Shown: positions 3,439-40,895 of the stretch, piece by piece | How the letters are laid out: each line of letters starts with the position of its first letter | Position numbering within the stretch: position 1 is the first letter of the stretch | Assembly (NCBI GenBank): GCA_023245335.1 | Contig: JAHFKK010000001.1 | Location: forward strand, 491,282 to 555,281 | DNA: 64,000 nt | Source of the DNA: Candidatus Gottesmanbacteria bacterium | GTDB taxonomy: Bacteria > Patescibacteriota > Microgenomatia > UBA10105 > UBA927 | Direction: 5' to 3' | Notes under the pieces: generated by a model | The model's database searches: none | Seen by the model: only the letters and a program-made list of their open reading frames with translations | Told to the model about the DNA's origin: nothing | Made by a program: the position numbers and the translations under genes

Positions 3439-3684
3439 AAATCCCCGCGTTCTTTGCGGCGCATATGCCGGTGAACACGGGGATTTATGAATTAATACAC
3501 ATAGAATTCCCTCCATCCACCAAATGCTCACGAATGAAAACTATTCTTCATTCGCAGGAAAAGGGTGGATGGAAAGATTAAAAATCGGAAATAGTAGTAA
3601 TGAATATAAAAGTAACTCGCAAGTGAGTTAATCTAGTTTCCACTAAGCTCTAAGTCGATAAAATGATTCAAGGAAAAGACCTTG

Positions 3685-3731
3685 AAAAAAAGGGGGGACC
3701 CAGCAAGATTGCTGGAGCTGGGTCCTCACCC
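3685..3731 (-). terminator. Rho-independent terminator (minus strand)
   Basis: Perfect hairpin GGACCCAGC-AAGATTGCTGGA-GCTGGGTCC (3696-3725). On the minus strand it is followed by CCCC+T7 (complement of the A-run 3685-3691). Confidence 0.6.
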
Positions 3732-4198
3732 TCATGACGTTCCCGCCTATCTTTGCTGATTAGTTGTTGTCTGTCTCTCCTGAAGACACCTCCAGCATGT
3801 TTGCCCTTGGCGTAAAGTCACGTCAGGATGCTTTTGGCAATGCTTGCTTAATTGTCCCGTGTGGGTGATAACACGTGCCATTTTTGGTCTTGCGATAATC
3901 GAACGAACATGGTGATGATTGTGAGTCGATTCTTGTCGGTGTTGACTGTTACTTGTACACATCAGGTTTGCTCCTCATTTGATTTGTCTTGCTCGGATTT
4001 GGGTTTTACTTCGTACTGCGGTGTTCGTTTGGTTATTGGGTCATAAAGATTGTATCTCCTTCTTAATTTAATTTTTGAACAAAAAGAAAGACAGAAGGAT
4101 AGGAATTTCTGTCTTTATCCTTGGTCAAAACTCTATTTGTAAAAGAGCAACAACGCCTTCTCACAGCTAGTTCTTAACAGTTCGCTAAAAAACAGCAC

Positions 4199-4465
4199 TT
4201 ATTTTTCGGGATCAGTGTCTGTAATCAGATGTTTCATGGCGTTAAATGTTTCTATTATTCTCTTGCCACGCTTAGCTTGGTTATGTGCCTTCCCTGATTC
4301 AAATGAGTGAGTCAGTCTTAATATGACACTGTCTGCGTCTCTACGAGGAACTCTGGCTGCACGATAACCTCGCCGTAGCCCTTCGAGTGCTAATTCGACA
4401 CCGTCCTTGTCCGCAACATTTCCATATAGCGCGGCTTCCTCAAATATTTTTTCTGCGTTTACCAT
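4199..4465 (-). CDS. Hypothetical 88-aa basic protein; sole ORF of a minus-strand unit bracketed by two terminators
   Basis: ORF track only; no recognisable motif and no obvious SD. It lies between the terminators at 4629-4662 and 3685-3731. Confidence 0.3.
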   Translation of the reverse strand: MVNAEKIFEEAALYGNVADKDGVELALEGLRRGYRAARVPRRDADSVILRLTHSFESGKAHNQAKRGKRIIETFNAMKHLITDTDPEK

Positions 4466-4628
4466 ATGATTTGTTTATAGAGTCAGTTAGTGTGACTGAG
4501 CTCGGAAACAATACCGCGATTTTTTCATTGTTTTTTCCGCGGAATGTCGTTACTTCCCATAAACAGGGAGACTTAGTAAATAATGATTTGGTTTCTACAG
4601 ATTGATTTAGTTCCATACGTATTCCCAT

Positions 4629-4662
4629 TAAAAAACCCCGCTTGGTGCGGGGCTCTTTGTTG
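4629..4662. terminator. Bidirectional intrinsic terminator hairpin
   Basis: A6-CCCCGC-TTGGT-GCGGGG-CTCTTTGTT: GC stem flanked by an A-run upstream and a T-rich tract downstream, so it reads as stem+U-tract on both strands (stronger on minus). Confidence 0.6.
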
Positions 4663-4796
4663 GTCTTACTGAAAAATTTCTTTATGCAGCAGTCTCCACA
4701 AGAGCCCCTTCCGCCTTTCGGAGGGTAATAAGGGCCATAATGTGGACGTACTGGCTTTGCATAAGAAAAATATATTATATGGATCAAACTGGCATA

Positions 4797-4825
4797 TTGT
4801 CAAGAGTTAAATCGGGAGATATACT
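4797..4825 (+). promoter_or_regulatory. Sigma70-like promoter for the aspS leader
   Basis: -35 TTGTCA (4797-4802), 17-nt spacer, -10 TATACT (4820-4825). Confidence 0.45.
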
Positions 4826-4831
4826 TGCGGT

Positions 4832-4980
4832 GACGAAAGAATACAGCGCAGATGGCCTGACAAGCCGGAGCTTCCTGGTGTCGTAACCGGGACGGGAGAG
4901 CCCGTAACCACTCAGAATGAGAAGTAAGTAAGGTGGCACCACCCCCGATCAACATCGTGGGTCCTTATATCAGGGAACGG
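4832..4980 (+). promoter_or_regulatory. Structured 5' leader of aspS with intrinsic terminator; candidate compact T-box (Asp) riboswitch or attenuator
   Basis: 'AAGGUGGCACCACC' resembles the T-box 'AGGGUGGNACCGCG' (UGGC would pair with tRNA-Asp G73-CCA). There is a GGC-CUGACAA-GCC hairpin with a GAC(A) Asp codon in the loop, and a long hairpin GGCACC...GGTGCC (4925-4974) followed by T6 (4975-4980) 44 nt before the aspS ATG. Confidence 0.4.
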
Positions 4981-5023
4981 TGCCTTTTTTGATGGTGAAA
5001 TCATGATAAGATGGAGGTAATCT

Positions 5024-6907
5024 ATGCGAACACTCACAACTGATACGGTTAGTAAGATCGGTGAAGAAGTGACACTCCAGGGCTGGGTGCTGGCACGGCG
5101 CGATCACGGCAAGATCATGTTCCTGGATTTACGTGACCGCAAAGGCATCGTACAGCTGGTCGGCAACAAAGCCCTAGGAGATGCGCGGGCGGAAGATGTC
5201 GTTGAGGTCGCGGGACTCGTCAAAAAGCGGCCGGAGGCAATGGTAAACGAAAAAATCGCAACCGGCACTGTTGAAGTCGAGATACAAAAGCTTACCGTCA
5301 TTTCCAAAGCCCACGACCTCCCGTTTCCTATAGATACCAACGGCTACGAAGTGAACGAGGAGATACGGAGTAAATACCGGTATCTCGACTTACGGCGTCC
5401 CCGCATGGCGAGAAATATCAGATTACGGTCAAAAATGGTCGCATTCATCCGGAATTTTCTTCTTACCCAGGACTTCGTCGAGATAGAAACGCCGATGCTC
5501 ACCAAAACCACTCCGGAGGGAGCGCGGGATTTTTTGGTGCCCTCCCGGCTTCAGCCCGGCAAGTTTTATGCGCTGCCGCAGTCGCCGCAGCAATATAAGC
5601 AGCTTCTTATGGTTGCGGGTATGGAGCGGTATTTCCAGATTGCCCGGTGTTTCCGCGATGAAGATCCGCGACGGGATCGCGCCTACGGTGAGTTTACCCA
5701 GTTGGATTTGGAGATGTCGTTTATCACCCAAAATGATATTTTAGAGCTCATCGAGGGCATGTTTACCCGATTGGTAAAGGAATTGTTCCCCGACAAGCAC
5801 ATTTTGAAATCTCCGTGGCCGAGACTTGCCCACAAAGATGTCATGAAAAAGTACGGTACGGACAAACCGGATCTTCGGGAGCACAAGGATGATCCTGACG
5901 AGCTTGCATTTTCCTGGACCGTCGATTTTCCGCTTTTTACGGAACAATCGGAAGCGGATTTCTTTTACGGATCCGGCAAGGCGAAATTTGCGCCCAGCCA
6001 CCATATGTTTACGGCGCCGCATCCGGATGACATCCCGCTTCTCGATACGGATCCGATGAAGGTGCGCGGGCTTCAGCACGATCTTGTCCTCAACGGATTT
6101 GAAGTAGGAGGGGGGAGTATCCGTATCCATCAACCGGAGGTGCAGACAAAGGTGTTTGACCTCATCGGGTTTACCCAGGAACAAAAGCAGGAGTTCGCGC
6201 ACATGCTGACCGCATTTTCCTACGGCGTGCCGCCCCATGGTGGGATTGCGCCCGGCATAGACCGGTTTCTCATGGCGCTTCTCGGGGAGCCGAGCGTACG
6301 GGAAGTCATGGCGTTTCCGACGTCCGCATCAGGAACCACAAGCGTCATGGATGCACCGAGTACTGCCGCCCCGGAACAGCTTTCCGAACTCGGGATAAGC
6401 GTGAAAGGGCCGATCTTGGGCAAATCAGGCGGGGAAGGTGTATACGCGAGGATTATCGAAGACTTGAAGTCTGCAGGAGTCGCGTACGAGCCATACGAGC
6501 ATGAAGCGGTCCGGACTTCGGAAGAAGCCGCCCGGATACGAAATACGCCCCTCCGCGAAGGCGCGAAAGCGCTGGTTTTATACGCGGATGACAAGCCGGT
6601 CATGGCGGTCGTTCCGGGTGACCGGAAACTGGATACTAAACTGTTTAAAGCGACATACCAGGTGAATGATCTCCGGATGGCGACACCGGAGGAAGTGGAA
6701 AAAGTAACCAATGTGCAAATCGGTGCGGTACCGCCTTTTGGTCACATATTCGGCATACCGATTTATGTGGATGCGGCGATCCGTGAAAATTCCAGCGTTT
6801 CATATAATGCCGGGATGCATACGCGTTCCGTGCGTATGGCGGAAAAGGATTATGAGAAGGTAGCCAAACCCATTGTCGGAGCATTTTCCAAACTTACCAA
6901 TGCCTAA
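5024..6907 (+). CDS. aspS: Aspartyl-tRNA synthetase, archaeal/short type (no GAD insertion), fused to a C-terminal YbaK/ProX-like aminoacyl-tRNA deacylase domain
   Basis: N-terminal OB anticodon domain 'VTLQGWVLARRDHGKIMFLDLRD'; class II motif 2 'FRDEDPRRDRAYGEFTQLDLEMSF' and motif 3 'GGIAPGIDRFLMAL'; the final ~170 aa ('KALVLYADDKPVMAVVPGDRKLD...ATPEEVEKVTNVQIGAVPPFG...IYVDAAI') follow the YbaK/ProX deacylase pattern. Confidence 0.85.
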   Translation: MRTLTTDTVSKIGEEVTLQGWVLARRDHGKIMFLDLRDRKGIVQLVGNKALGDARAEDVVEVAGLVKKRPEAMVNEKIATGTVEVEIQKLTVISKAHDLPFPIDTNGYEVNEEIRSKYRYLDLRRPRMARNIRLRSKMVAFIRNFLLTQDFVEIETPMLTKTTPEGARDFLVPSRLQPGKFYALPQSPQQYKQLLMVAGMERYFQIARCFRDEDPRRDRAYGEFTQLDLEMSFITQNDILELIEGMFTRLVKELFPDKHILKSPWPRLAHKDVMKKYGTDKPDLREHKDDPDELAFSWTVDFPLFTEQSEADFFYGSGKAKFAPSHHMFTAPHPDDIPLLDTDPMKVRGLQHDLVLNGFEVGGGSIRIHQPEVQTKVFDLIGFTQEQKQEFAHMLTAFSYGVPPHGGIAPGIDRFLMALLGEPSVREVMAFPTSASGTTSVMDAPSTAAPEQLSELGISVKGPILGKSGGEGVYARIIEDLKSAGVAYEPYEHEAVRTSEEAARIRNTPLREGAKALVLYADDKPVMAVVPGDRKLDTKLFKATYQVNDLRMATPEEVEKVTNVQIGAVPPFGHIFGIPIYVDAAIRENSSVSYNAGMHTRSVRMAEKDYEKVAKPIVGAFSKLTNA

Positions 6908-6938
6908 TTCAGAATCGCCTCATCCAAAGAAGCACGCG

Positions 6939-7880
6939 ATGCTTTCGTTTGTTCTGCGCCAGTGGGACAAACTGCTTTTTTTGGTGCTGCTTGCCCTATT
7001 TTTTGTGCTCATGCCGATTCAATCCGGGCGGGTTTTTCAATTTGCCGTGCCCGGTAAACCGCTTCTGCAGCTTGTACCGTTTACCACGCCGACTCCCGCA
7101 CCATACCCGGTGAACCGGACCAAAGTTTACCCCGGGAGTGAAGTGACGGCAGAGGGAGTCGTCATCTACGATGTGACGAGCGCGACGACTATGTATGCGC
7201 GAAACGGTGAAGAGTCATTGTCACCAGCATCTACGACCAAGATCATGACCGCGCTTGTCGCGCTCGATTCATATAGTCTTGATGATGTCGTTTCTGTAGG
7301 AACCGTCGCAAATGACGGGCAGGTGATGGGACTTATCCCGGGAGAGCAAATGACGGTCGAAAATCTTCTGTACGGAGCATTGGTATTTTCCGGTAATGAT
7401 GCAGCGTGGGCGCTTGCGGAACACTACCCCGGGGGCGTCGACGCCTTTGTACAGGCGATGAATGCGAAAGCCGCGAAATTACATCTTACCCACACGCATT
7501 TTACCAATCCGGTCGGGTATGATGACCGGAATCACAAGATGACGGCCACGGACCTCACGCGTCTTGCGGCATTCGCCCTGACGAATAAAACCATTGCAAA
7601 AATCGTTGCCATCCCGCAAATAACCGTTTCGGATATCACCTATACGCATTTCCATGCGCTCACAAACGTCAATCAGCTTTTGGGTAAAATTCCGGGAGTC
7701 GCCGGCATTAAAACAGGTTGGACCGAAGAAGCAGGGGAAAATCTCGTCACCCTTATAGACCGGAACGGTCACCGGGTCATCATTGTCGTACTCAAAAGTC
7801 AGAACCGGTTTACCGATACACAGATACTCATTAATTGGGTATTTGGAAATTATGATTGGCAGACATTTGGTCCATCCTAA
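6939..7880 (+). CDS. D-alanyl-D-alanine carboxypeptidase (peptidase S11, PBP5-like), N-terminal TM/signal
   Basis: SxxK 'ASTTKIMTA', SxN 'FSGND', KTG 'IKTGWT'. Start placed at ATG 6939 to avoid overlap with aspS; the ORF opens at 6873. Confidence 0.8.
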   Translation: MLSFVLRQWDKLLFLVLLALFFVLMPIQSGRVFQFAVPGKPLLQLVPFTTPTPAPYPVNRTKVYPGSEVTAEGVVIYDVTSATTMYARNGEESLSPASTTKIMTALVALDSYSLDDVVSVGTVANDGQVMGLIPGEQMTVENLLYGALVFSGNDAAWALAEHYPGGVDAFVQAMNAKAAKLHLTHTHFTNPVGYDDRNHKMTATDLTRLAAFALTNKTIAKIVAIPQITVSDITYTHFHALTNVNQLLGKIPGVAGIKTGWTEEAGENLVTLIDRNGHRVIIVVLKSQNRFTDTQILINWVFGNYDWQTFGPS

Positions 7881-8941
7881 TGCGTGGCGTCCACATACGT
7901 AGGATCGACGGCAGGTACATAAGCCGCAAATCCGTCATCTCCCTCGAAGACAAAGACCGGTTGTAAATACGTTTGTGGGTCTAGTGAATCGTAATACGCG
8001 AGGTAAACGTTTCGGACCGTGATGACGTTTCCGGTTGGATATTTCAGTACATAGCCACTGCCGCTTTCGAGTTCCTGCCATGCCTGGTTGCTGGTTTTTA
8101 ACGCGTATGTTGCGCTCGTCTGATAGTCAATCGGCCAGTAGGTATAGCTAAATTGCAGGATGCGTCTTTGCGTGTTTTTGGAGCCTGAAAATATGATGGA
8201 AATCGGTCCGCCGGAAGCCCCTGTGACGATAGGAGTATTGGCAACGAGCGGCCGATAGAAGTCGACTCGTACCGCATCGGCCTGCGACTGACTGGGGACC
8301 GTCACGAGAGTACTTTGACTTACTTTATAAAACGTCACCGTCACGTCTCCGCCGGTATAGTCCTGCGGATACAATCCGTACGTTTGGAGTAAATTACGTG
8401 CTTCGGATTGTGCTTCTTCGGATGTCGGGACGTTGCTATTCAGAAATATGCCCGCATCCTGCTGGAAGTCATACCGGATAATGAAGTTCGTCGATACCAC
8501 GTCATACCATAAATGCCGCAAAGGAGCCGTAGGATCGTCGAACCGGTAGATGTTGTTATTGGTAGGATCGCTTATGGGATTGGTCCCGAACCCTAAGCGT
8601 TTGGCAAAGGTCTGTGCTGTGGAAAGGGCAAGGAGATTTGAGCCGGTTTTTGGCATGAAATAGACATTTGCGGAAACGGATGCATCCGGCACAGATCCCT
8701 GGATGGTTTGGAGCTGAAAAATAAGCTGCCCCGATGGCGACGCTGCATTTATCGGAAACTTGAGTGACGGCAGGGAACCGAATGCGTGATTGGGCGGCGG
8801 TGCTTTCGGCGGAAAAATCATGATGTAGACCGCGATCAAAATACCCCACAAAATTTTAAGTAGTATGTATCCGATGAGGCCGATGATGCTCCAGTTGATC
8901 GCGCGGCGCGTGTAATATGCAGTTTCCGTTAATGAAGCCAT
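7877..8941 (-). CDS. Membrane-anchored hypothetical exported protein
   Basis: N-terminal TM helix 'INWSIIGLIGYILLKILWGILIAVYIMIF' then a ~300-aa beta-rich extracytoplasmic domain; no catalytic motif recognised. Start at the internal Met 'MASLTETAYY' to avoid overlap with gltX. Confidence 0.5.
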   Translation of the reverse strand: MASLTETAYYTRRAINWSIIGLIGYILLKILWGILIAVYIMIFPPKAPPPNHAFGSLPSLKFPINAASPSGQLIFQLQTIQGSVPDASVSANVYFMPKTGSNLLALSTAQTFAKRLGFGTNPISDPTNNNIYRFDDPTAPLRHLWYDVVSTNFIIRYDFQQDAGIFLNSNVPTSEEAQSEARNLLQTYGLYPQDYTGGDVTVTFYKVSQSTLVTVPSQSQADAVRVDFYRPLVANTPIVTGASGGPISIIFSGSKNTQRRILQFSYTYWPIDYQTSATYALKTSNQAWQELESGSGYVLKYPTGNVITVRNVYLAYYDSLDPQTYLQPVFVFEGDDGFAAYVPAVDPTYVDATH

Positions 8942-9007
8942 AGGCAGTACGCACAAGTAATGTGCGCTACTTTGAGTATACGTTGAGCTCATGCTAGAAT
9001 CAATCGT

Positions 9008-10453
9008 ATGACAGTTCGTACGCGCATCGCGCCGTCCCCGACCGGATTTCCTCACATAGGGACGATTTATCAGGTTTTGATCGATTTTGCTTTCGCGCGC
9101 AAAGCAGGAGGGAAGTTTATATTACGCCTGGAGGATACGGACAGGGCGAGGTTTGTCGAAGGCGCGGAGGACGTGATATATAGTTCCCTTGCCTGGTTTA
9201 GTCTCAACCCGGACGAATCCCCGAAGATAGGGGGCCCGTTTGCGCCGTACCGTCAATCAGAACGCCTTCCTATCTACAAGAAATATTCGGACGAACTGAT
9301 CGCGAAAGGACATGCATATTACTGTTTCTGTACCCGTGAACGTCTGGAAGAGATGAGGAAAAATCAGGAGGCTCATCACCTGCCCCCTATGTATGATAAA
9401 ACGTGCCTCAAACTCACGCCCACGGACGTGAAGGCGAAACTAGATGCCGGCGTACCTCATGTGGTGCGTATGAACGTTCCCGTTCACGAGAAAATAGCAT
9501 TCGACGACCTCGTATCAGGACACATTGAATTTGACAGCGACGTCATCGATCATCAGGTGATCATGAAATCCGACGGGTTCCCTACATATCACTTCGGCGT
9601 TGTCGTCGATGATCATCTCATGGAGATCACCCATGTGTTTCGGGGAAAAGAATGGATTTCATCGACCCCGAAACATGTGCTGCTCTATCAATATTTCGGC
9701 TGGAAGATGCCGGTGCACGGACATCTCCCGCTTATCCTCAACGAAGACGGAAAAGGGAAGCTTTCGAAGCGCCACGGTCATGCATCCGTTGACTACTACC
9801 GGAAGTTGGGATACCTCCCGGAAGCGGTGTTGAATTATTTATCCAATATCGTCTGGAATCATCCGGAAGGAAAGGAAATTTATGACCTCGATGAATTCAT
9901 CAAGCGATTTGATGTGGAGAAGATTACCTCCCAGGGACCCAGATTCGATCTCAAAAAATTGGATTGGGTGAACGGTCAGTATATCCGCGCATTGACTGAT
10001 GACGCGCTGCAGACACGAGTCAGCGAATTTGACGAGCGGGTGAGTAGAGCCGATGCTAAGCTTGTCGCAAAGACGATGCCGCTTGTGAAAGAACGGATGC
10101 ACGTATTGAGTGACTATTGGTCGCTTGCATCATTTTTCTTTACCAAACCGGATTCGTTTGAGACGCCATTACGTAAAGACATGCTCTCCGGATTATACGA
10201 GACGCTGACGCCAGTTGACTGGAAGCATGAACCTATGGAGCAGTCGATACGGCAGCTTGCAGAAAAGAACAGTTGGAAACCCAAGGATGTCTTTATGCAG
10301 CTGCGACTCGCCGTCACGGGGAAGACTGTAGGGCCGCCGCTTCTGGAATCACTGGAGATATTGGGGAAAGAAGAAACACTGATCAGATTAAGCGTGGAGT
10401 TAGATAGTCATTATCCTTCCTTTGAAGAGAAAATCGTTGGGAAAAAACCGTAG
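9008..10453 (+). CDS. gltX: Glutamyl-tRNA synthetase
   Basis: HIGH motif 'PSPTGFPHIGT', KMSKS 'KLSKRHG'; 481 aa. Confidence 0.9.
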   Translation: MTVRTRIAPSPTGFPHIGTIYQVLIDFAFARKAGGKFILRLEDTDRARFVEGAEDVIYSSLAWFSLNPDESPKIGGPFAPYRQSERLPIYKKYSDELIAKGHAYYCFCTRERLEEMRKNQEAHHLPPMYDKTCLKLTPTDVKAKLDAGVPHVVRMNVPVHEKIAFDDLVSGHIEFDSDVIDHQVIMKSDGFPTYHFGVVVDDHLMEITHVFRGKEWISSTPKHVLLYQYFGWKMPVHGHLPLILNEDGKGKLSKRHGHASVDYYRKLGYLPEAVLNYLSNIVWNHPEGKEIYDLDEFIKRFDVEKITSQGPRFDLKKLDWVNGQYIRALTDDALQTRVSEFDERVSRADAKLVAKTMPLVKERMHVLSDYWSLASFFFTKPDSFETPLRKDMLSGLYETLTPVDWKHEPMEQSIRQLAEKNSWKPKDVFMQLRLAVTGKTVGPPLLESLEILGKEETLIRLSVELDSHYPSFEEKIVGKKP

Positions 10454-15858: not shown

Positions 15859-16689
15859 TTAATTGTTATTTAATATGTAGAGATCCTGTCCGTAGGTGTT
15901 GAGTCCTACGAGCGTCGCATTACCCGCAAGTACTGCTTCGTACGGCCGGCACGCACGACAGCCGTTCTCGTGGCACTTGAAGTGTCCGAGTTTGCGGGCA
16001 AGCGCGACTTTGCGCGCAAGATCGAGTATCTTTTTTTCCGAGGATCCTGCATCAGGAAGGGTCATGTCGACAGGCGCGTCATCGCGGTCGAGGTACCAGT
16101 AGCTTATGCCCGTTACCGCTTTGGTCTGCGTGTGTGTCGCGAGTAAATAATAGATAGGAAGCTGCAGCGAGTCCGGGTCTTCGTCGAACTTGCCGGTTTT
16201 GAAGTCGATGATCCGGACACTGTCGGAGTCTTCTTTGTATTCCAGCCAGTCCACTTTACCGCAGAGGATGATGTTGTCTTCTTCGGACAGCCAATAATAG
16301 GGAAGTTCCTGGCGTATTTTGATGGCTTTCCCCGCGAGTGGACCGGGATGCTTCATAACCCGTTCGATCATCGACACCGCGCGTTCCTTCGATTTCTTTT
16401 CCTGCTCCGGGTCGGTGAATCCTCCCCGCTTGCCGGAAATGTTCGCCCAGGCTTTTTTAAACCTATCCATAAGCGACGTCGCGAAGCGCTCTTCGGCAGG
16501 GAGTGAAGACAGGGATTCTATGGTTTCGTGTACTGCCTGGCCGAGCGCAAGGGGCGGCTCCATGACGGAGATTTTTCTGTTTGTTTTGGGATCTCGGTAG
16601 ACGTTTCGCAGGTAATAAGCTCTCGGACACTTGAGGTAGTCAGAGAGTGATGAGTGGGAAACCCATACTGCTGAGTATTTATCCTTCAT
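15859..16689 (-). CDS. PD-(D/E)XK nuclease superfamily protein, Cas4/RecB-nuclease-like with Cys cluster
   Basis: N-terminal 'DYLKCPRAYYL', core 'VDWLEYK...RIIDFKTGK', 'QLPIYY' (QhxxY) and C-terminal 'CHENGCRACRP'. Confidence 0.6.
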   Translation of the reverse strand: MKDKYSAVWVSHSSLSDYLKCPRAYYLRNVYRDPKTNRKISVMEPPLALGQAVHETIESLSSLPAEERFATSLMDRFKKAWANISGKRGGFTDPEQEKKSKERAVSMIERVMKHPGPLAGKAIKIRQELPYYWLSEEDNIILCGKVDWLEYKEDSDSVRIIDFKTGKFDEDPDSLQLPIYYLLATHTQTKAVTGISYWYLDRDDAPVDMTLPDAGSSEKKILDLARKVALARKLGHFKCHENGCRACRPYEAVLAGNATLVGLNTYGQDLYILNNN

Positions 16690-40076: not shown

Positions 40077-40895
40077 TTAGTGGGCGCTAGTCGTTCCCGA
40101 CAGTTTGGATTCTTCCTGCACAAAATACGAGAGGATTTTATTTTTCCGCTCGTCTACGGTCAACTTTGACTGTATGCCGGGGCCCATGATGCACCCGCCA
40201 TCGCAGTTTAATATGTCGAGGATCCGCAGCGAAGGGTCGGCATCGAACTCTTTGATCGCGGCGATATTGCGCGCTGGGCCGGAAACAATTTTGACAGCAT
40301 TTTTCCCGAGGGTGTCACTCACCTTGCCGCTTTTCGTGAGACCCCCATCCAACGGGTAGAGTTTGGTGAGCCCGGATATGGAGATATCGAAATGATCCTC
40401 GGGGCGTTTGACGTCGTCGGTGATATTGAAATGCGTAAACACCTGGGTAAGCTCGGTATAGGTGAGGACGAGAATATTGAGTTCCGGGGCTTCTTCACGG
40501 GCTTCATACTTTTTGACGAAGCACGGGCCGATAAATACGGGCCGGTAACCCGGATATTTTTCTTTCACGATTTTGGCGGTCGCTATCATCGGTGAATCCA
40601 CGCCTTGGGTGAGGTAATGGCTATATTGCGGCAGCTGCCGTTTGATGAGGCGGACCAGTGTCGGACAGGGGCTTGTGATGTATCGTTTATCGGGGTGACC
40701 CGAAAGGAGTTTCGTCAGTTGCTCGTTCGTGACCCTGGCGCCAGCTGCGACCTCTGCAGTATAGGTAAAGCCTAAGCTTTTGAGCATGGTGATGATACCG
40801 GGGTACGTAAATACGATAGGAAACGACGGCGCAAGCATAGCGACTAATTTTCCTTTGCGAGTGAGAAGATCGATAAGCGTGTCAATGTCGGTCAT
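40077..40895 (-). CDS. [FeFe]-hydrogenase-like H-cluster domain protein, stand-alone 272 aa
   Basis: L1-like 'ITSPCPTLV' (TSCCP with the first Cys replaced by Pro), L2 'FIGPCFVKKYE' (MPCxxKKxE), L3 'ILNCDGGCIMGPG' (ACxGGCxxGGG). Confidence 0.55.
   Translation of the reverse strand: MTDIDTLIDLLTRKGKLVAMLAPSFPIVFTYPGIITMLKSLGFTYTAEVAAGARVTNEQLTKLLSGHPDKRYITSPCPTLVRLIKRQLPQYSHYLTQGVDSPMIATAKIVKEKYPGYRPVFIGPCFVKKYEAREEAPELNILVLTYTELTQVFTHFNITDDVKRPEDHFDISISGLTKLYPLDGGLTKSGKVSDTLGKNAVKIVSGPARNIAAIKEFDADPSLRILDILNCDGGCIMGPGIQSKLTVDERKNKILSYFVQEESKLSGTTSAH

Follow-up and report, generated by a model that had tools for sequence, protein, structure and literature searches.

What is an aminoacyl-tRNA editing domain doing on an aspartyl-tRNA synthetase (AspRS), an enzyme that textbook accounts treat as needing no editing? 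The question is raised by a gene in a 64,000-nucleotide stretch of Candidatus Gottesmanbacteria DNA (contig JAHFKK010000001.1, positions 491,282 to 555,281; hereafter the window, numbered from its first letter). The open reading frame (ORF) at 5024..6907 on the forward strand, confirmed from the ORF listing, runs from an ATG start to a TAA stop. It encodes 627 amino acids (aa) plus the stop, has an N-terminus that fits the family consensus MxRTL, and is a complete fusion gene, here called aspS-edit. Homologue P0001 is identical to the window protein. The fusion consists of a bacterial-type AspRS and a C-terminal editing domain of the YbaK/INS superfamily. This C-terminal domain is probably a catalytically competent post-transfer deacylase that is dedicated to a product of AspRS, as judged from the lines of sequence evidence presented below.

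The synthetase part begins with an OB-fold anticodon-binding domain at residues 16-93 (5069..5302, forward strand; Pfam PF01336 tRNA_anti-codon, E 2.8e-12), followed by the class IIb catalytic core at residues 111-433 (5354..6322, forward strand; PF00152 tRNA-synt_2, E 8.7e-111). Within the core are the QSPQ motif (186-193) and the two class II motifs that the original prediction had quoted, motif 2 at 207-233 and motif 3 at 406-421. The aspartate-binding residues K192 (of QSPQ), D228 and R414 are present and invariant across the family. The enzyme had been described as a complete, GAD-less AspRS of the archaeal/eukaryal type. It is complete and it does lack GAD, but it is not of that type. 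The protein passes the bacterial aspS equivalog NF001750 in NCBIfam, in two stretches (606.2 bits against a cut-off of 443), and the bacterial model TIGR00459 (545.8 against 373.85). It falls below threshold for the archaeal/non-discriminating model NF003483 (229 bits against 353) and the archaeal-type model TIGR00458 (205.7 against 368.4). In a phmmer alignment to Thermus thermophilus AspRS-1 (1efw; E 1.6e-136), residues 11-285 match 14-294 and residues 294-461 match 418-578. Residues 295-417 of the 1efw chain are skipped, and the GAD insertion of ~123 residues is replaced by ~8 residues. The segment in its place, residues 284-295 (LREHKDDPDELA; 5873..5908, forward strand), is 74% conserved in the family, and Pfam found no match to the GAD domain (PF02938) in the 627-aa protein. 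The bacterial-type C-terminal extension is kept at residues 434-461 (6323..6406, forward strand) and aligns to 1efw up to 578 of 580. The NCBIfam scores and the 1efw alignment thus rule out an archaeal-type assignment, and the sequence identifies the synthetase as a bacterial-type AspRS minus GAD, with its C-terminal extension retained to about residue 461. In one study GAD serves as the defining marker of bacterial-type AspRS (PMC4206432), and its use as such explains the earlier archaeal-type call.

The window protein shares the OB domain, core, QSPQ, motifs 2 and 3 and the C-terminal extension with the bacterial-type enzymes of known structure (1EFW; Escherichia coli 1C0A), but differs from them in lacking GAD and in having an extra 166 residues of linker and editing domain. 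A bacterial-type AspRS can thus do without GAD. This GAD-less form is an unusual variant in its own right, and it is widespread in Microgenomates. The original prediction had also reasoned that a GAD-less AspRS is usually non-discriminating, an argument that does not transfer because the window enzyme is bacterial-type. H28 in the RRDHGK sequence of the OB domain is invariant in the alignment of the fusion family, where T. thermophilus AspRS-1 has Leu. It may correspond to a marker of non-discriminating AspRS (H31 of Pseudomonas aeruginosa), a resemblance that we treat as a lead only.

Beyond the synthetase lies a linker at residues 462-475 (GPILGKSGGEGVYA; 6407..6448, forward strand), which is of low identity and variable length, and then the editing domain at residues 476-627 (6449..6904, forward strand). 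A Pfam scan of the C-terminal region, proposed earlier as a check, matched PF04073 (tRNA_edit) at residues 493-612 with an E-value of 4.8e-31, covering positions 1-122 of the 123 in the profile (107.8 bits against a gathering cut-off of 25.5). Searched alone against solved structures with phmmer, the domain matched Legionella pneumophila lpg1207 (3op6, E 1.9e-17) and T. thermophilus ProX (2cx5, E 6.6e-11), as well as Aeropyrum pernix 1wdv, the INS domain of prolyl-tRNA synthetase (ProRS; 2j3l, E 2.7e-5) and YbaK. An AlphaFold2 (AF2) model of the isolated domain is of high confidence, with a predicted local distance difference test (pLDDT) score of 95.7 and a predicted template modelling (pTM) score of 0.90. 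Foldseek placed this model closest to T. thermophilus ProX (2cx5/2z0k; TM-score 0.85-0.86, root-mean-square deviation 2.1-2.3 Å). All 37 matches in the PDB at E<=1e-3 are proteins or domains of the YbaK fold: YbaK, ProX, the ProRS-INS family, the YbaK-like domains of SadB (9qzk) and Maqu_0641 (3mem), and designed scaffolds based on 2cx5. The identification of a YbaK/ProX-type deacylase domain with its loop was therefore correct.

The residues expected of an active member of the superfamily are in place. The conserved Lys lies in G513-A-K515 (6560..6568, forward strand), where alignment to YbaK/INS structures puts K515 opposite the Lys of 3op6, 2cx5, 1wdv and ProRS INS. It is invariant in 34 fusions and in 147/147 representatives of the 150 closest relatives clustered at 50% identity. 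The GXXXP loop, G567-A-V-P-P571-F-G573 (6722..6742, forward strand), was likewise found where it had been read from the sequence, at 567-573. G567 and P571 are kept in 150/150 representatives and G573 in 147/150, and all three are invariant in the 34 fusions. Other conserved positions are specific to the subfamily. H493 and R506, with a helix at 499-506 before the Lys strand (6500..6541, forward strand), occur in 143/144 and 130/145 representatives, respectively, and S602 and M605 are similarly near-invariant. The position of R506 is occupied by Ala in 3op6 and Val in 2cx5. Across 34 homologues, mean pairwise identity is 57% in the OB domain, 63% in the C-terminal extension, 23% in the linker and 54% in the editing domain. 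Because the editing domain is about as conserved as the OB domain, and far more so than the linker, it is under purifying selection like the OB domain, with the linker free to vary. The linker ranges from roughly 8 to 50 residues in these homologues and has a pLDDT of <50-55 in the full-length AF2 model.

Which subfamily the domain belongs to could be narrowed. YbaK proper, the Cys-tRNA(Pro) deacylase, is ruled out by scores below both equivalog cut-offs (TIGR00011, 59.1 against 153.25; NF007951, 23 against 243). Membership in ProXp-ala is unsupported, as phmmer found no match to the solved ProXp-ala structures (1VKI, 5VXB, 9BU5) at E<=1, and Foldseek matched them at the fold level only, more weakly than ProX or YbaK. 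ProXp-x (2CX5) is the best fold match, yet it is only 26-27% identical and does not share R506/H493. By sequence, the editing domain is typical of its subfamily, which is large, uncharacterised and mostly free-standing, with 3,927 representatives at E<=1e-3, 982 of them at E<=1e-10, mostly of 150-165 aa. Some relatives carry more than one copy. Pfam finds three tandem tRNA_edit copies in P0123 (448 aa), and two or three stretches match the subfamily in P0123, P0129 (491 aa) and P0151 (303 aa). The R506 position is not Arg in these three proteins.

The fusion is not peculiar to the window. A search of related genomes for the same fusion, suggested with the original prediction, found PF04073 in 120/120 listed homologues of the full protein (63-100% identity), drawn from NCBI, JGI, ENA and Logan assemblies, many of them independent. 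All three domains are present in 119 of the 120, and the other (P0119) is truncated at its N-terminus. Named sources are Patescibacteria, Gottesmanbacteria and Woesebacteria, and the database name is merely aspartate--tRNA ligase. A scan of GTDB species representatives with the editing-domain alignment found 137 relatives. We kept 80 loci and sorted them by tblastn and stop-to-stop ORF analysis, leaving L087 unclassified as it ends at a contig edge. AspRS and the editing domain share one stop-to-stop ORF at ~74 of the 80 loci. The AspRS is bacterial-type and GAD-less at ~50 of these, archaeal-type at 18 (e.g., L029, L042, L068, L069, L072 and L078), and bacterial-type with GAD at five (L073, L082, L084, L088 and L091). 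At L080 it bears an insert of GAD-like size. The editing domain is a separate ORF directly after an archaeal-type aspS at four loci, and at two there is no aspS within 4 kb upstream. The NCBIfam models agree with this sorting. P0124 scores 508 bits with NF003483 (cut-off 353) and also has the editing domain, L029 likewise passes the NF003483 cut-off, and P0152 scores 815 bits with NF001750, GAD included, and carries the editing domain. Judged by these sequences, the editing module is tied specifically to AspRS on three different scaffolds. Because GAD-bearing fusions exist, the idea that the editing domain replaces GAD is rejected.

The recurrence also disposes of a trivial explanation, that a frameshift or assembly error joined two genes. 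A split pair does exist in Candidatus Amesbacteria, but the split forms belong to archaeal-type aspS, the linker of the fusions is in frame and variable, and the same fusion is found in every listed homologue from separate assembly sources and at most of the GTDB loci. An artefact, named in the original prediction as what would undo it, is ruled out by this recurrence in independent assemblies, and we give it practically no weight.

The closest free-standing relatives of the editing domain, 45-50% identical, are in Candidatus Amesbacteria, where the editing gene, of 149-157 aa, comes after an archaeal-type aspS of 438-455 aa. On at least 24 contigs the ATG of the editing gene overlaps the stop of aspS (ATGA; …AAAATGACG…). 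The window and the Microgenomates have a common gene order: CCA-adding enzyme (reverse strand), recJ, aspS, edit, a Peptidase_S11 gene (dac), a gene without assignment (reverse strand) and gltX. The order recJ-aspS-edit-dac-x-gltX is found with split archaeal-type aspS and with fused aspS of three kinds: archaeal-type, bacterial-type without GAD, and bacterial-type with an insert. Across L001-L007, L012, L018, L029, L042, L062, L068, L069, L080 and the window, the aspS gene at this conserved locus varies between the archaeal and the bacterial type. Since the gene order is conserved despite the differing aspS type, the sequences indicate that the AspRS scaffold was swapped in situ and that the editing module remained attached throughout. 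In a rough neighbor-joining tree of the editing domains, built without support values, the fused domains of the candidate phyla radiation (CPR) form one clade in which those on archaeal and bacterial scaffolds are intermixed, with the split forms basal. The fusions with GAD on DPANN-labelled contigs form a clade of their own amid free-standing proteins. Their separate clustering suggests a second independent fusion event. These contigs (L073, L082, L084, L088 and L091) are titled Woesearchaeota, Nanoarchaeia or Methanosarcinales and lack the Microgenomates synteny, and they may reflect gene transfer between CPR and DPANN, or mis-binning. Other labels also look doubtful. L017, L019, L021-L028 and others are titled "uncultured Gammaproteobacteria bacterium" yet are typical Microgenomates loci, and these titles of metagenome-assembled genomes (binchicken, co-assembly) look like placeholders or wrong taxonomy.

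How might such a protein work? AspRS would first esterify a tRNA. The flexible linker would then bring the tethered YbaK-fold domain to the 3′ CCA-aminoacyl end, which it would capture either directly, during departure of that tRNA from the synthetic site, or when the tRNA binds again, and the ester would be hydrolysed by K515 and the GXXXP loop (G567-P571). In the sister lineages this task would fall to a distinct protein whose translation is coupled to that of AspRS and which would act in a complex or in trans. What favors a deacylase dedicated to AspRS is the intact superfamily signature, the purifying selection, the repeated linkage to AspRS, the gene overlap in Amesbacteria, the kept synteny and the second fusion clade. 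Architecture, fold, catalytic signature, flexible tether, purifying selection on the domain, recurrence and coupling to aspS are observations; from them we infer activity, action on an AspRS product and the identity of that product. That the substrate would be made by AspRS is also suggested by precedent, because known editing domains embedded in synthetases, including the ProXp-ala-ProRS fusions, all act on the products of the host synthetase (PMC11295145).

Our leading guess for the substrate is a tentative one. It is Asp-tRNA(Asn), surplus or not channelled to the amidotransferase, which to our knowledge is the sole mischarged species that AspRSs make in vivo. The guess is drawn by analogy from this property and from two precedents. 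The GluRS2 of Helicobacter pylori deacylates free Glu-tRNA(Gln) (PMC3241645), and NCBIfam contains a model for a bifunctional AspRS-GatC (NF009460) which, going by the model name only, is a precedent for a module that processes Asp-tRNA(Asn) while tethered to AspRS. The window protein scores 411 bits with this model against a cut-off of 1379, via its AspRS part only. The next guess would be a non-cognate or D-aminoacyl-tRNA(Asp). A 2024 review counts seven synthetase families with editing domains (PMC11295145). It is conceivable, if rather unlikely, that AspRS is an eighth with its own editing domain, one that proofreads tRNA identity, not amino-acid identity, by hydrolysing the Asp-tRNA(Asn) that an inherently relaxed AspRS produces. 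If so, discrimination would be restored after transfer in organisms that use AsnRS, and those that use GatCAB would have a safety valve for the unchannelled intermediate. Either would be a new quality-control logic in translation, one preserved on three AspRS scaffolds in both CPR bacteria and DPANN archaea.

Several points weigh against a deacylase dedicated to an AspRS product, or against Asp-tRNA(Asn) in particular. We know of no proteinogenic amino acid that AspRS misactivates. If the indirect Asn pathway operates here, hydrolysis of Asp-tRNA(Asn) would work against it, and no asnS, gatCAB, tRNA-Asn or tRNA-Asp was found within the 64-kb window. The subfamily is mostly free-standing, and the two distant free-standing members that we examined (Saccharimonadales and Planctomycetota) are not adjacent to aspS; the family's ancestral substrate could therefore have been something other than a product of AspRS. 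The substrates of ProXp-x, the closest relative to have been characterised, are 2-aminobutyryl (Abu)- and Ala-tRNA (PMC11295145). Structure prediction, another of the proposed checks, clearly recovered the YbaK/INS fold of the editing domain, but failed for the whole protein: with a shallow alignment to work from, AF2 modelled the core of the full-length protein poorly (pLDDT 65.9, pTM 0.36), and the model has no usable inter-domain geometry.

The main rival among the substrate readings follows from some of the same points. The domain could be a generic trans-editing factor that rides with aspS, i.e., a ProXp-x-like deacylase for Ala-, Abu- or Cys-tRNA(Pro) or for other tRNAs mischarged with small residues. 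Its link to aspS would be an accident of operon structure, and the fusion would merely secure co-expression in tiny genomes. ProXp-x/T. thermophilus ProX is the closest relative both among characterised proteins and in structure, free-standing members are called "Ala-tRNA(Pro) deacylase" by JGI, YbaK itself works in trans without tRNA specificity (PMC11286415), and the distance from aspS in Saccharimonadales and Planctomycetota fits as well. The link to AspRS, however, outlasts the replacement of the scaffold at a syntenic locus and recurs in a separate clade and genomic context on the DPANN-labelled contigs, while known synthetase-editing fusions all edit products of their host. The low identity to ProXp-x and the absence from it of the subfamily-specific H493/R506 also argue against a shared role. 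We regard a generic factor as unlikely. Nor do we favor the related suggestion in the original prediction that genome reduction led a trans-editing factor to be consolidated into the fusion, as the subfamily is tied to aspS on three scaffolds and also as an overlapping neighbor gene.

Another possibility is chiral or non-cognate proofreading on tRNA(Asp), in which the domain would remove D-Asp or an aspartate analogue imported from the host or the surroundings and so substitute for D-aminoacyl-tRNA deacylase (DTD). E. coli AspRS puts D-Asp on ~20% of tRNA(Asp) in vitro, and D-Asp-tRNA(Asp) is a classical DTD substrate (PMC1807948). The invariant pair of Arg and His is a possible binding site for a carboxylate side chain, and the conserved downstream neighbor is a D-Ala-D-Ala carboxypeptidase gene to which the editing domain appears fused in some genomes; that adjacency, though, may be mere synteny. 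Neither dtd nor proS was found within the window, but the absence of dtd from 64 kb is uninformative on the remaining genome. Enantioselectivity is known for no member of the INS superfamily. D-Asp-tRNA(Asp) is thus a weaker alternative than Asp-tRNA(Asn), and we think this role improbable. More improbable still is an appended domain without catalysis, in which the YbaK fold would serve only for tRNA binding or dimerisation, e.g., to make up for the loss of GAD. Appended tRNA-binding domains are common in synthetases, and GAD is indeed lost in the window enzyme. Yet neither the catalytic Lys nor the GXXXP loop varies, whether the member is fused or free-standing, and the fusion occurs on AspRSs that retain GAD (P0152; L073, L082, L084 and L091) and on archaeal-type AspRS, which never had it.

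Among known systems, the best structural match and second-best sequence match, ProXp-x or T. thermophilus ProX (TTHA1699; 2CX5, 2Z0K), has the same Lys, the GG/AVPPxG loop and a single-domain deacylase fold, but it is free-standing and has no link to AspRS. The closest solved sequence is lpg1207 (3OP6), with 138 residues aligned and the PPFG loop and a NAG-H motif in common. It is an uncharacterised, YbaK-like and free-standing protein of 152 aa. The only published fusion of a free-standing-type INS-superfamily deacylase to a synthetase is that of ProXp-ala at the N-terminus of ProRS in Plasmodium and trypanosomatids, which edits the product of its synthetase (PMC11295145; PMC11286415). The fusion described here is likewise of a free-standing-type deacylase to a synthetase, but the ProXp-ala fusion has ProRS as the partner, is N-terminal and eukaryotic, and involves another INS subfamily. 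The INS domain of bacterial ProRS has a homologous fold and catalytic motifs and is also an example of cis-editing in a class II synthetase; it is, however, not appended but lies between motifs 2 and 3 as an insertion, and it edits Ala-tRNA(Pro). AspRS-GatC is another AspRS with an added module that, again by its model name only, processes a tRNA-bound product. That module is an amidotransferase subunit which converts Asp-tRNA(Asn) and not a hydrolase.

The original prediction held the architecture to be undescribed. This stands for the literature, where full-text searches found no description of an AspRS with a YbaK/editing domain (a passing mention in the chapter defining ProXp-7/8/9 is possible), but the protein is abundant in databases as aspartate--tRNA ligase. 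Apart from ProRS, INS-superfamily deacylases are described as single-domain proteins (PMC11295145), and ProXp-7/8/9 are uncharacterised (PMC11295145; PMC11286415). A literature search on the Asn-tRNA pathway of CPR found nothing. What is new here is the finding of an INS-superfamily editing module on a new synthetase partner, AspRS, visible in databases but unannotated. As the pairing recurs on three scaffolds in many lineages, it suggests that AspRS has a dedicated editing partner in many uncultured lineages. The fusion is conserved and apparently catalytically intact, and two episymbiotic radiations have acquired or kept it on three AspRS scaffolds. This would imply that organisms with minimal genomes face a fidelity problem in Asp/Asn decoding that has gone unrecognised. 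The fusion also gives a functional handle on an uncharacterised subfamily of free-standing deacylases with about 1,000 clusters at 50% identity.

The genes around aspS-edit are mostly those of the conserved locus. Immediately downstream is the D-Ala-D-Ala carboxypeptidase (Peptidase_S11; 6873..7880, forward strand), which is assigned by NCBIfam and Pfam and conserved in synteny. Its likely start is the ATG at 6939, 32 nt past the stop of the fusion. In P0135 and P0178 the editing domain is N-terminal and is followed by a predicted membrane segment and a Peptidase_S11 carboxypeptidase, either a real fusion or a read-through call. A 392-aa protein without an NCBIfam match (7877-9055, reverse strand) is kept between dac and gltX, on the opposite strand, across Microgenomates. 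Upstream, 1,585 bp between recJ and aspS-edit (3439-5023) hold no ORF >115 aa and have a GC content of 42.7%, against about 50% for the window. No Rfam match was found in this gap, nor any remnant of RelA/SpoT, a gene for which stands at this position in the Amesbacteria loci. A plausible ORF of 88 aa lies within it (4199..4465, reverse strand). Farther along the window, the gene at 15859-16689 (reverse strand) has a weak Cas4-like match (37 bits against a cut-off of 65), and that at 40077-40895 (reverse strand) encodes a 271-aa protein whose match to the Fe-only hydrogenase large subunit is confined to the C-terminal domain of the latter.

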